A stretch of DNA of 64,000 nt from Eledone cirrhosa (Eukaryota): assembly GCA_964016885.1 (NCBI GenBank), contig OZ024754.1, forward strand, positions 8,680,001 through 8,744,000, in the 5' to 3' direction. This document shows, one piece after another, positions 48,101 to 54,100 of the stretch. The translations under genes and the position numbers were made by a program. The notes under the pieces were generated by a model. It ran no database searches and had not been told where the DNA came from. It saw only the letters and a list, made by a program, of their open reading frames with translations. Position 1 is the first letter of the stretch, and every line of letters starts with the position of its first letter.

Positions 48101-51100
48101 ACATGCTCACCACAAACGGGTTGTCTGTGAATGTGAGAATGTCTCTCTCAACAAATGCTTGTTCGGTTTGGTTGCGCATAAGTAAATGCTGTTTGCCAAT
48201 TTTCTTGATGGCAAATCGCTTCCTCGATTCTTTGTGACGCACTAGATAAACAGCTCTGTGAAGTATATAAGATTTAGAGAAAACATAAATATCTATAGAG
48301 AGACCTGTACACTTTCATATACTAATACATAACCCATTGGAATAAGATACAATTCACACTACCCAAGACATTAAGTGAAACACAAAAGTTGCTTAGAGAA
48401 AGAATGAAATTATTCATATAGAAACCCCTGCCAAAACAAAACCAAACAAATTTTTATTACATTTTATAAATAGATATATCTGGTTTAGAATAGGTACAAC
48501 ATATCCCTGTCCCTGTTTGTCGTAAGGAGTGACTGAAAAGTTTGGTGTCAGGAAAGGAAAGGTATCCAGCTATAAAACATTGCCTTAAAAATTCCTGCCC
48601 AACCCATGCTAGCATTGAAATGTCAATGTGATGATGATGATGATGACACCTTATTTTGTGCAAGCCTGGGATTTTTCCAGATCCCACAGAAGGAAAACCA
48701 TGAATTTTTGTTTCAGCCAACAATTGTATGGAAGATGGATTACATATTAAGGGAAGACAACAACAAGCATTATAAAGCCATTTTCCTTGCAAAAGCAGAC
48801 ATAAGTCTCATGGGGTCCTTTTTGGGGTGTAATGGTTCATAGCCCTTCCTGGAACCAACACTTTTAGTCACTTCTTAGGCCACAAGGTGTACGGTACACC
48901 AATTCTAAACCAGAATACAAGCAAGAAAGAAACAATGGAATAAACCCCAAGAGTAAATAATTAACTTACGCAAAAGCTCCGCTGCTGATTAGTTTTATTG
49001 TATCAAAGTCATCCTCTGATGGGGCAGCTTTTTTCTTTTCTTTTGTCTGTAAATTAGAGAAATATATATCTTTAATGACCAACAAGTTTATTGTCTAAGG
49101 AAAGAATAACAGGACAGATTTTTACAGGCAAACCCCCCAGCATATTGATGGGGGTGCAGCTGCACCCCAGAAAAAAATTGTTGTCGGAAAATTCTTAAAT
49201 TTTGCTTGTTTATTTTATGTAGAATACAATAATGAATCAAGATGTCATAAAATGATTGGCATGCATAAAACTTTTTGTAAGATGTATCGTAACTTACCGC
49301 ATTGCTATCTGCTGATTCTGCTCCACTAGCGCAATCTGTACTATCGTGCATTCCGATTTCCTGAACATCTGGAAAAAAGAAATATCATCATCATCACCAT
49401 GGAATAGACGAGTTGTCCCATTGTGAGACAAGCCAGATCATAAAAATTACTTGTTTTAATTCATTGATATGTCCTTGGTGTTAGTTTCTCAAAGCACTGG
49501 TGGCATATGACTTAGAATAAAGGAATTCACAATGGCTTGATGATATGATGGTAGAACTACCTCTGACCAATAGCTACTGGCCTTCTATAGCCCTTGTGTT
49601 GATGCTGTGAGGCTGTTTATTCTAACTCATGTCACCAGTGTTTTGGGAAAGTAAAACCAAGTATCAATAGATAGATATCAAAAGGTAGAAGGATAGAGAT
49701 AGAGAGAAAGCAGGAAGAAATAGAGTTAGAGGGGAGAGAATGAGGCAATCCTTACCAGCAAGTGGATCTCTGTTCAATCCCAATTTCTGGATGATATACT
49801 GGGGGATGTCAGCTTTGACATACTGGCGTGCATGGCCTTCTGCTGCCTCCAGCATATGGTAAAATTGCTCTGGGTTGAATTCCTGCAAGAGAAAAGAAAA
49901 CAGAAAAATATAGAGTTTATTAAACAGAATAGTTAGAATAGTGATGATGATGGCTTAGATTACTTCTCTACCAGTGTGAACGGTACCTAGTTTGGAGAGA
50001 GAGAGAGGGGGGAGAGGAAGAAAGAAAGGGTCTGCTTCACTAAGGATATCAATACTATCTTATTTACCAAAAAAAAAAAAAAAATGTTAGCCATAACTAA
50101 AATGGTCAACTTTGGAGTAATATTATTTGATAGGATGGGTAGCTTGGAGATCAGGGAGTTACTCCAGGTAGAGCTGCTACTTCTCCGAATTGAGAGATCA
50201 TAACTCTAGTATCACAGACATGAGGTTAGAATATGTGAGGAAAGAAGGGACTGATTTTATAGGTAAAGGCGACCAGCAGGAGACAAAGAGGTAGATAATC
50301 AACTAAAAGGTTGGATAACATCCATAAACTTGGCTGGTTTTGTTTCGGGATCCAGCTGGATCATTTGAAGACAGATGTTTCTGATAGGGACCCTCTGGTA
50401 GGCATGGTTGAGGACTCTGCCCTTACGACCTTCCCAGGAATAAGTAAGCAAAGAAGACGTGTTCACACTGTAAAGAAATGTCCAGAAGGAAGGAAGGGGT
50501 TGGTATATTGGTTAATACAGGCTAGGCTGGTAATAGTGGAGTAACTTACCAAGCATTCCAGTAGACGAGCTGGTCGGGAAACTATGATGAGTAGCTTTTT
50601 GATGAGTGGATAGAGGTATTGATATGTCTCTTCAGATCTCTCTTGAGCCTGTAGTAAAAGATAGGAAGTAGAATTATTAGATAATGGAACATAAGATCAG
50701 AAAATGTACAAGTATTATATATATATATATATATATATATACGATATTAACAAATGGAAACTATATTTATTTCATTATACATATTTCAAGGACACCAAGT
50801 TAAATTATGGTGTGCTTTCATCAGATAAAATATAATATAGAGCAGTTTTATAAATAAATATTGACATACCTTTAAAGAATGTGACCATTACTGTCCGGGA
50901 GCTTCCAACAGTAATGGTCGCATTCTTTAAGGATATGTCAATATTTATTTATAAAACTGCTCTATATTATATTTTATCTGATGAAAGCACACCATAATTT
51001 AACTTGGTGTCCTTGAAATATGTATAATGAAATAAATATGGTTTTATAAATATAGTTTCCATTTGTTAATATCGTATTTTTACTCCAATTATTTGTTGAG

Positions 51101-54100
51101 TGCTTTATATCAGTTATAAAAATATTTGCTTGTTGTATCCCAACAATTTAAATAGAACTTCTAGATATATATATATATATATATATATATATATATATAT
51201 ATACACACATATTTAACATTATCATTTAACATCCATTTTCCCTGCCCCTCTCAACCCTCAAGAAAAATAAAACAAAAGAAAAAAAAACTTACATCTTTGA
51301 GTAGTTTCTCTAAATTTTCTGACAATTCACAGAAATAATTACTAGTTATTAGTTTTTCCTGAGACTTTTGAAGACAATCTCTTGCCATTTCAAGTACTTG
51401 GTGATGAAGAAAGCTTAAAATTGCATCAGGTTCAGCTGGGGCTCGGTTTGACTCAATAAAGAGATCCAATCTTTCTTCCATCTGATCGGTGGCCTGTACA
51501 AACAGAATAACATATTTATACACTGTCCAAAATTTAGATAGATAGTGAGGTAGACAGACAGACAGATAGATAGTGAGGTAGACACACAGACAGACAGATA
51601 GATAGTGAGGTAGACACACAGACAGATAGATAGTGAGGTAGGTAGATAGACAGACGGACAGATAGATAGTGAGGTAGACACACAGACAGACAGATAGATA
51701 GTGAGGTAGGTAGATAGACAGATAGATAGTGAGGTAGGTAGATAGACAGATAGATAGTGAGGTAGGTAGATAGACAGACAGACAGATAGATAGTGAGGTA
51801 GACACACAGACAGATAGATAGTGAGGTAGGTCGATAGACAGACAGACAGACAGAGAGACAGATATATAGAAAGAGAGAGATAGGTAAGTAGGTAGACTGA
51901 CAAACAGACAGACAGACAGACTGACAGACAGATACATACATACATAAATAGATAGACAGAGAAATAGATTTGATAGTGGAGGAAAGAAAGAAATATTTTT
52001 AAAAAGTCCTACCTTAGGGAATCTCTCTTTATACATGTTATTCATCATGACTATTTCTAAATCACTTGCAGGAGAGCGAGCAGGACTACTGCAATGGAGA
52101 AATATAAAGCAACATTAGTTAATATGTTAGATAGGGCTTAGGTATCAGTGAAGACACAAGACAAGTATGGGGATGTGTTTGTTTGTATGTATATATGGTC
52201 AAGTTAGGCTTCTGTCTGCTAATGGTATCATATAACCCAGTACAACTGGCATCATGGAGTGGTCAATGACTAAACTGGCTCCCTCACAATTGGTGAGCAC
52301 AAAAACACAAAAGTTGTTCATATTTGACCTCTAAAACTAGTTTGATACTTCTTCTCAAGTAGTTTTATGTTTAATATTGAACTGTCTTTGTATATCAGTA
52401 ACTGAACCAAGATGACAGCTTGTATCAAAATAGACTGATTAGCTGAGCTGTTTGGCAAGATAATCCCTTGGATCAAGCTGCCTATTTCATGTAGATTTGA
52501 TTCAGAGTTTGTTTATCTCACCAGAGTCTCTGAAAAACTCTTGAGCTATTGTTTTATTTCCTTCAGCCTGCCTGAAACCGCCCAGCTTCTGTGATACAAA
52601 ACTGTCCTTTTGAAGGTGTTTATATTTATCAAAAATCATTCCATCATAATTTTATGTAAGAACCATTGTCAAGTTATGTTCCTAACACCAACATAAGTTC
52701 ATGGAAAATTAACCTCTTCCCCACAAAAAAAGTTTTTGACACACTAAATAAAGGTGTGAGCATTTTAACATTTTTGTGACCGTATTTCTAATGAAAGATA
52801 CAGCCTATGATATTCAAATAATATTTTGAAAATAATCAAAAATTTGGAAGAATTTATTAATATAACATTTGAAACACAACTTAAAGGTTCTTATATAAAC
52901 TTTTCATGGAATGTTTTTAGATAGATATAAACTTTAAAATAAAACAGCTTTGCATTATAGAAAATGTCCATAGATTAGATAAGAGGCCAAAGAAAACACA
53001 TGACCTTTGACATACAAAACTATAGATTATCTAGATTAGTGATAAAGAAAAAGTTGTTGTGGAAGAACTAATCAATCAACATCAAGTAGGTGAAATATAG
53101 GTAACAGGTAAGAGAATATAGTTGAATCAAATAAATATTGATAAGGGTCATCTATGAATGTAATCTTAACCCTTTTGATACCAAACCCTAGCAGGCATGT
53201 CAAACTGAGGGTCTCCCGAGGACCACATGGGTCACATGTGTTGTCCGAGGGCCACATGGATCATGTGTGTTGTCCGAGGGCCACATGGGTCACATATGTG
53301 TTGTCTGAGGGCCGCATGGGTCACATATGTGTTGTCCGAGGGCCACATGGGTCACATATGTGTTGTCTGAGGGCCGCATGGGTCACATATGTGTTGTCTG
53401 AGGGCCACATGGGTCACATATGTGTTGTCTGAGGGCCACATGGGTCACATATGTGTTGTCTGAGGGCTACACATTACAACTAATTTTTAAAATTTTATAT
53501 TACAAAGATAAAACATGGTCGTGCTGTAAAAACCTTTGTGTGGGCCGCAGGTGTGCTTGTGAAGGGCCGCATGTTTGACATGCCTGATATAGAGAGATTT
53601 CTTACCTCAAACTTCGGGAGCGAGGCCGTGGTCGTGGGGACCACCGCCCTCCACTGGAGTCATCCTCAGGGGGAACAGCATTATTTTCATTACTTCCAAA
53701 ATGTCTAGTGAGAATATGCAGTTCATCTGGAGTAGGCTGAGATGGCAGCTGGTGAAGACGCTCTTGAGAAGAGCACTGGGACTGAAAGAGGAATAAAAGA
53801 CATTCAAATTAAGACTTTACGGAGGTGAGGAATCACCATGATCACCATCATCACTATCATCACCACCACCATTTCCATGATCACTATCATCACTATAATC
53901 ACCACCACCATGATTACCATCATCACTATAATCACCACCACCATGATTACCATCATCACTATAATCACCATGATCATCATCATCAGCATTACCATGATCA
54001 CCATCACAATGATCATCATCCCCACTATGATCATCACCTCGATTACCATCATCATGATCATCACCATTAATTTTATGGGGGATTTTTTTCTACTGGTATG

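Follow-up and report, generated by a model that had tools for sequence, protein, structure and literature searches.

The 338-bp palindrome at positions 50740-51077 of the window (the whole 64,000-nt stretch of Eledone cirrhosa contig OZ024754.1 that was analysed; coordinates are positions in it) and its 86-nt one-sided tail are a 5'-truncated head-to-head insertion of a young, high-copy Penelope-like element (PLE) of the Hydra clade. The insert is embedded in a (TA)n repeat inside an intron of a MAST kinase gene. The element is a new family of a known clade and the shape of its insertion has already been described. The insert probably arose when reverse transcription began separately at two sites of a single uncut RNA, each marked by a short hairpin. 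The two hammerhead ribozymes of the palindrome, one per strand, would therefore be a single ribozyme of the pseudo-long terminal repeat (pLTR) that was copied twice. The MAST locus itself is ordinary and the value of the data lies at the level of the family. PMC8557442 names the formation of the tandem or inverted structure and of the one-sided tail as open, a question on which the family data bear. They argue against a simple fold-back and predict that each start site is set by a short RNA hairpin. If true, this would define which cis signal a compact target-primed integrase uses and would account for a common origin of hairpins in cephalopod introns.

Two fixed ends and their pairing in inverted copies

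The right arm and tail of the insert retrieve 1,599 candidates in the genome (3.0 Gb searched), of which 40 were scored; those are 98-100% identical. The copies, which adjoin (TA)n or (CA)n, terminate at one of two fixed sites, A (q170) and B (~q256), with 86 nt between them; in this pLTR numbering q1 is position 50908. Exact junctions number 2,606 for A|(TA) and 3,560 for B|(TA), with 0 for the reversed-pattern control. Site A is read through into the tail at 2,409 places, and at 74 places the sequence continues past B into a short leader and an open reading frame (ORF). The tail is thus the interval between the two ends, and the arm that carries it ends at B while its tail-less partner ends at A.

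A census of how these ends pair took the first junctions of contig C1, 70 at A and 90 at B. The A anchors have a B partner in 46 cases and an A partner in none (1 other, 12 unresolved, 11 single); the B anchors have an A partner in 52 cases and one partner flagged as B/B, at a multi-piece locus (16 unresolved, 21 single). Taking 11 duplicates out of 75 leaves 64 distinct A/B insertions. All 64 cleanly resolved palindromes of the sample carry one A and one B end, an A/B share (64/65) to be compared with the 49% expected for independent ends (p = 3e-19). Two other Hydra-type families, met by chance among loci L001-L276 and found via their ORF starts, have A/B ends in 5/7 and 24/30 of their inverted pairs, the ends being 89 and 84 nt apart. 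L348 and L350 have B on the inverted arm, with A as the direct end; the rule therefore demands one end of each kind without fixing the side. The junction class between the arms is different in each of the 64 palindromes; therefore each palindrome forms anew.

The arms also inform on how they were synthesized. Their polymorphisms agree at 555 sites and disagree at 21 (253 expected under random pairing), which places both arms in the same subfamily but does not prove a single source molecule. In 31 of the 64 pairs the A arm outreaches the B arm on the 5' side by >20 nt, and the reverse holds in 8 (p = 3e-4); 15 B arms barely overlap the A arm, and in 25 pairs the arm ends lie within 20 nt of each other. 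Longer A arms and barely overlapping B arms imply that the A arm is not copied from the B cDNA. In the stretch that both arms share, truncations occur at 4.2 per kb in B arms and 1.6 per kb in A arms. Among the 49 A arms that got near the 5' zone, 35 end within 11 nt of q-17, a stop that is possibly the start of the RNA. The hammerhead cut site is read through by 61/64 A arms and 45/64 B arms, and only 3/64 B arms end at 117-123.

As an observation apart, loci L056 and L057 (C1 near 56.02 Mb) carry two identical A/B palindromes in mirror orientation ~340 nt apart, a later duplication or an assembly artefact.

A duplicated hairpin motif and a proposed route of insertion

Site A is followed, after 4-5 nt, by a hairpin motif. 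Full-length elements carry a second copy past site B, shortly ahead of the ORF; the window insertion lacks that copy. The tail after A resembles the leader after B in the succession of a TAT-like end, a few nt, RCTC-loop-GAGY and NCTYT. At one stem pair the two copies differ, A-U standing against G-C. Each of the three families has the motif behind both of its fixed ends; in the two other Hydra-type families its loops measure 8 to 38 nt. By eye it is also present in 4/6 Hydra consensus sequences of File S7 of PMC8557442, twice in two of them: Hydra-2_Amil and Hydra-2_Ajap carry it in their tails, Hydra-1_Ajap has it twice before the ATG, and Hydra-1_Crog has a variant in both tail and leader. 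The published motif-bearing consensus sequences come from three other phyla. The variable loop and covarying stem suggest that the motif acts as RNA. Since the post-B motif is not part of the B-ended inserts, it would act on the template or donor.

A route that would produce these features starts with docking of the element protein on the two hairpins of an RNA that spans the pLTR to the ORF leader. Both strands of the (TA)n target would be nicked by the GIY-YIG domain, and each 3' end would pair by a few TA bases with the RNA immediately 5' of a hairpin, so that one cDNA is primed at A and one at B. Both cDNAs would be extended toward the RNA 5' end, over ~190 nt from A and ~270 nt from B, and would pass the uncleaved hammerhead on the way; the B-primed cDNA would stall more often once beyond A. 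Their ends would then be joined, often at short microhomology. Extended to the clade, this proposal is that two hairpins dock two reverse transcriptases on one transcript, each priming from one nicked end. The tail is then the spacing of the docks and the inverted pLTR the normal two-ended product. With docks near the RNA 5' end, mostly ribozyme-bearing hairpins of ~450 bp would be made, well over a thousand of them for the family of the window, a large recent source of long double-stranded RNA in a cephalopod genome. For this wider statement the balance tips only slightly in favour.

The closest biochemical system is Poseidon of Anolis carolinensis, a PLE of another clade whose ORF begins inside the hammerhead (Frangieh et al. 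2024, PMC11167929). In vitro it nicks and extends both strands, and two internal starts bound its tail; its template is uncut RNA that must extend downstream of the starts, and cleavage by the ribozyme is dispensable. The search of the literature, with most subscription papers outside its reach, found no prior description of the A/B rule or of the hairpin, and neither is mentioned in the accessible portion of PMC8557442.

Twin priming of L1 is a further parallel, in that both target strands prime on one RNA and an inverted 5' part is joined by microhomology. The second start of L1 is variable and its parts do not overlap, whereas in the present family the starts are fixed and the arms usually overlap.

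Several observations weigh against two hairpin-marked starts on one RNA. All steps of the route are read from inserted copies, and the starts of Poseidon show no target homology and no strand difference, whereas the present family ends at TA-like bases and pairs A with B. The census leaves 28/160 anchors unresolved and 32/160 partnerless; a B/B pair exists at L125/L126 (from the unresolved set), an A/A pair at L182 (chosen outside the census), and the third family has 2 A/A pairs. A partner arm is closer than all other sampled copies in only 20/45 cases (6 ties, 19 not), and private variants are shared between arms 29 times and unshared 99 times. Two RNAs from a single active source, or conversion between the arms at a later time, would also give concordant arms. 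The 5' stop at ~-17 may be a joining hotspot instead of the RNA start. The rate of the motif pattern in shuffled sequence, once in 1.3 Mb, counts in favour of the model but is not a blind test because the pattern was written after viewing the three families. The plain likeness of the two motif copies is modest, as 24/5,000 shuffles are as good and AT-rich windows of the untranslated region (UTR) score about equally. Hydra-1_Obim has a degenerate form of the motif, and the consensus of Hydra-1_Amil ends before the motif position (both in File S7 of PMC8557442). Finally, the unbroken ORFs belong to an older subfamily whose pLTR is 87-92% like the window copy.

Among other routes to the palindrome, the use of two RNA molecules in an asymmetric complex (for example through dimer-type hammerheads) with the same two hairpin-marked starts, or a homogenisation of the arms after insertion, is unlikely but carries the most weight. 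Every count given above is compatible with it, and the partner arms are not reliably mutual nearest neighbours. The stem III loops are self-complementary in the family of the window and in neighbouring families, as in hammerheads that act as dimers (PMC4209133), but the stem III duplex amounts to only -2.2 kcal/mol and the computed dimer fold leaves it unused. Two RNAs also offer no ready reason for the scarcity of A/A and B/B pairs or for the extra truncation of B arms past site A. Fold-back is a different proposal and a rather improbable one: a strand would fold and be copied back, and an endonuclease would trim one end, leaving the tail. Self-priming on an antisense template was suggested in PMC3846280 and endonuclease-mediated resolution in PMC8557442. 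Fold-back would account for the many junctions that lie, with microhomology, in a short imperfect palindrome near the 5' stop, for the pairs whose arms end close together and for the variants common to both arms, and the junction in the window is compatible with it. A copied-back arm, however, cannot outreach its template, and the tail-less arm is the longer one far more often than the reverse. This contradicts fold-back of the tailed strand, a constraint that applies also to the self-priming of PMC3846280. The B arms that scarcely overlap the A arm are equally at odds with it, and the post-B motif, lying outside the B-ended inserts, cannot mark a cut on the copied strand.

The probability is close to nil that a master palindrome spreads as a unit, in the manner of a miniature inverted-repeat transposable element (MITE), i.e. 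as a DNA transposon with a TA target, or as a retrozyme. Long inverted arms, TA flanks and high copy number recall such elements, yet the ends are unequal, no two of the 64 junction classes agree and the linked ORF codes a reverse transcriptase (RT) and a GIY-YIG endonuclease. Nor are the copies arranged in the head-to-tail arrays that define non-LTR retrozymes (bioRxiv 10.64898/2026.07.22.740005). Both class assignments were considered for the insert and rejected: a MITE is a unit of fixed make-up whose terminal repeats match and which has a partner transposase, and a non-LTR retrozyme consists of head-to-tail hammerhead repeats without ORF, whereas the insert is a head-to-head pLTR copy of an ORF-bearing element. 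Two starts on one RNA thus remain the preferred account of the palindrome.

Coding capacity and clade of the element

The link to PLEs proposed in an earlier note on this DNA is borne out by the pLTR reading into an RT/GIY-YIG ORF and by full-length units in the genome. Twenty of the past-B regions show pLTR-ORF-UTR-pLTR units of ~4 kb (3.9-4.1 kb) in which every frame is broken; no unbroken ORF is present in these first 20 full-length candidates, whose longest frame has 612 aa. The protein search, with 150 of 37,330 candidates scored, listed 8 stop-free open frames of >730 aa, and three of the four that were fetched are ATG-started ORFs of 742, 742 and 732 aa. The unbroken 742-aa ORFs accompanied by both hairpins are at L347 and L348.

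This organization is that of PLEs with an endonuclease (EN+): a single ORF for RT and a carboxyl-terminal GIY-YIG domain (motifs read by eye) is flanked by pLTRs, and copies display 5' truncation, an inverted copy and a tail at one end. Four pieces of the ORF gave no Pfam match at the curated cut-off; a GIY-YIG cluster is found among the Atlas neighbours of the ORF. The element shares with C-terminal EN+ PLEs of the Hydra clade (Hydra-1_Obim, Hydra-1_Ajap, Penelope-13_HM; Craig et al. 2021, PMC8557442), whose proteins were compared with it by eye only, the DKT, RW-x, CxCX5C, CxxC and CxH motifs of the single ORF, a canonical hammerhead on the sense strand of the pLTR, insertion in (TA)n, an inverted 5'-truncated copy and a one-end tail. 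In the 742-aa ORFs CxCX5C forms the linker, CxxC and CxH stand beside the E and N of the endonuclease, and CCHH is absent. The family differs from the published members in having RWR for RWK, a hammerhead unlike that listed for Hydra-1_Obim, a tail of 86 nt instead of 30-40 bp and a unit larger than their size of 'generally <3 kb', the latter because its 3' UTR is 1.3-1.5 kb long. An inverted 5' copy with a one-sided tail is typical of PLEs, and Penelope-13_HM, in the supplement of PMC8557442, has an inverted copy attached to it and hammerheads on both strands; a ribozyme per strand is therefore the expected footprint of such an insertion.

Some further features of these elements are noted. 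The ORFs at L347 and L348 have, after the RT thumb, a short asparagine-rich stretch of variable length that recalls the longer N-rich inserts of PMC3846280. The 3' UTR at L095:4337-4700 carries, by eye, its own long inverted repeat around a microsatellite, perhaps a captured palindromic insert. At L031:4019-4720 the inverted endonuclease end of a different Hydra-type family is fused to the pLTR of the present family, by template switch or nested insertion.

Ribozymes, host intron and neighbouring repeats

The near-perfect hairpin with its 13-nt loop stands as the earlier note had placed it (Table 1). Its arms (50758-50894 and 50908-51044) are 97% complementary, and their pairing extends, across a 14-nt gap in the left arm, as 50734-50788 with 51028-51082. 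The fold of 50700-51200 has -267 kcal/mol (z = -32.7), equalled by 0/100 shuffles. The B arm supplies the loop as its 5' overhang, at the 5' strong stop of the family. The same note had drawn the feature over 50740..51165: this includes a true palindrome, and the part of it left unexplained there, 51078-51163, is the tail of the element. Its assignment of the host sequence to a 644-nt intron between MAST exons also holds, since contigs of runs X24, X1 and X18 join the exons exactly across it, the X24 contig being identical to both exons with the intron spliced out. The upstream exon codes DUF1908, and the exon of the PDZ region is 89% identical to a cuttlefish protein (next match 61%), which marks the host as a coleoid cephalopod.

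Table 1. Positions of the MAST exons, the inserted element and its parts in the window
Feature	Position	Strand	Remarks
Downstream MAST exon	50550..50648	-	contigs; splice sites read from sequence
MAST kinase intron, 644 nt, GT-AG	50649..51292	-	exon-joining contigs; gene identity by protein comparison
Upstream MAST exon (DUF1908)	51293..51493	-	contigs, domain match; acceptor read from sequence
(TA)n target, left part	50716..50741	.	target duplication unreadable within the repeat
(TA)n target, right part	51166..51203	.	sequence reading
Short A arm	50740..50894	-	tail-less pLTR copy that stops at fixed site A; 14 nt of the family sequence deleted
Arm junction	50890..50907	+	5-nt microhomology (4/5) and 13-nt loop 50895-50907
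Long B arm	50895..51163	+	pLTR copy with tail, ending at fixed site B
Tail, 86 nt	51078..51163	+	interval between the A and B ends
Hairpin motif, copy 1 (RCTC-loop-GAGY-NCTYT)	51082..51106	+	4-5 nt past site A
Minimal type I hammerhead, A arm	50768..50832	-	core at 50824; minus-strand cut predicted after 50776
Minimal type I hammerhead, B arm	50970..51034	+	predicted cut after 51026
Second, shorter A/B palindrome	30212..30385	.	same family, same gene; truncation of both arms lies downstream of the hammerhead core

A complete minimal type I hammerhead on each strand, as previously proposed, is recovered by descriptor: in the window CTGATGA...GAAA with paired stems occurs only at +50978 and -50824, with strict and relaxed settings. 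The search with hammerhead models suggested alongside it was answered only by this descriptor; the Rfam hammerhead models gave no match, either in the window at gathering score or in 50600-51300 at E <= 10, and membership of the class rests on the descriptor. On the plus strand stem I (50970-50977/51027-51034) has 8 bp, stem II (50985-50994/51005-51014) 9/10 pairs followed by GAAA at 51015-51018, and stem III two pairs with a self-complementary loop. The core CUGANGA, GAAA and a UH site meet at a three-way junction closed by stem I. Folding of a single arm in isolation gives stems I and II (z -2.4 and -2.8). Core, covarying stems and short stem III with a palindromic loop are those of the dimer-type type I hammerheads of metazoan PLEs (Cervera and de la Pena 2014, PMC4209133), except that stem II is longer. 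The head-to-head arms put the two motifs on opposite strands, and therefore form no tandem dimer within one transcript.

The core is invariant in 28/28 aligned motifs, which were picked by a descriptor that requires it, and 14/19 stem pairs vary on both sides in this descriptor-chosen set, whose selection favours paired stems. Where arms were selected by homology alone, a pair of stem II reads U-A in 23/57 and C-G in 30/57, and three further common changes retain pairing via G-U. A minor allele above 10% is seen in 0/11 core columns and 20/144 other columns, a difference that alone is not significant. Judged by these comparisons of copies, the hammerhead structure is under selection within the element. 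Cleavage in vivo was also sought in genomic truncations: (TA)6 is joined at the cut site at 82 places, against 16 and 15 at control sites. The 30 such loci viewed by eye are mostly sister families or TA expansions of stem III, ~4 having downstream sequence of the own family, so that these confounded counts allow no enrichment to be claimed. Metazoan minimal hammerheads do not cut as monomers and cut poorly as dimers (PMC4209133), a review likewise has minimal PLE hammerheads cutting poorly even as dimers (PMC6765202), and the Anolis hammerhead needed protein and was dispensable for insertion (PMC11167929).

Many unrelated hammerhead families are found elsewhere (e.g. L037:450-500, L111:4329-4403, L107:6754-6804), with self-complementary stem III loops in those eyeballed. 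A very young family at L282, L283, L288, L301 and L305 (2,837 candidates, 99% identical) has open frames of at least 589 aa, and its likely hammerhead has A replacing the core U4.

As MAST is encoded by the minus strand, it is the A-arm hammerhead that reads sense in the pre-mRNA, and the layout upholds the earlier claim that the antisense arm is transcribed before the sense arm. With the antisense arm first and a loop of only 13 nt, ~60 nt of the sense arm could pair before the core is made. In an equilibrium model the probability of the ribozyme stems in nascent intron prefixes is < 1e-21. The sense copy is therefore predicted to be locked in a double strand of ~155 bp and silent, in an intron that is removed. 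Coleoid cephalopods edit their RNA heavily from A to I, and a near-perfect double strand of this length is a plausible ADAR substrate.

It had been proposed that self-cleavage competes with hairpin formation and ADAR editing of the pre-mRNA. As a host device that controls MAST this finds encouragement in the two intact cores and in a plausible ADAR substrate within a heavily editing group, but it is very improbable and the claim of a competition is unsupported. The stem probability in the nascent intron, the inertness of minimal hammerheads as monomers and their weakness as dimers (PMC4209133), and the X24 contig that splices both exons across the intron all speak against it. The insertion is moreover recent, in a family that is 98-99% identical, one among thousands and a routine product of the element, and the sister copy in the same gene has no hammerhead core. 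Both ribozymes of the MAST intron are likely silent passengers and not a switch.

Other repeats of the window include short palindromes at 57300-57525, 58395-58552, 19762-19850 and 61332-61403, of which the first two adjoin (TA)n. That at 57300-57525 has a one-sided tail with a GAGTGCTTT-like stretch and probably belongs to another Hydra family. A tandem satellite of 12 kb with a period of ~82 nt occupies window positions 1-12133.

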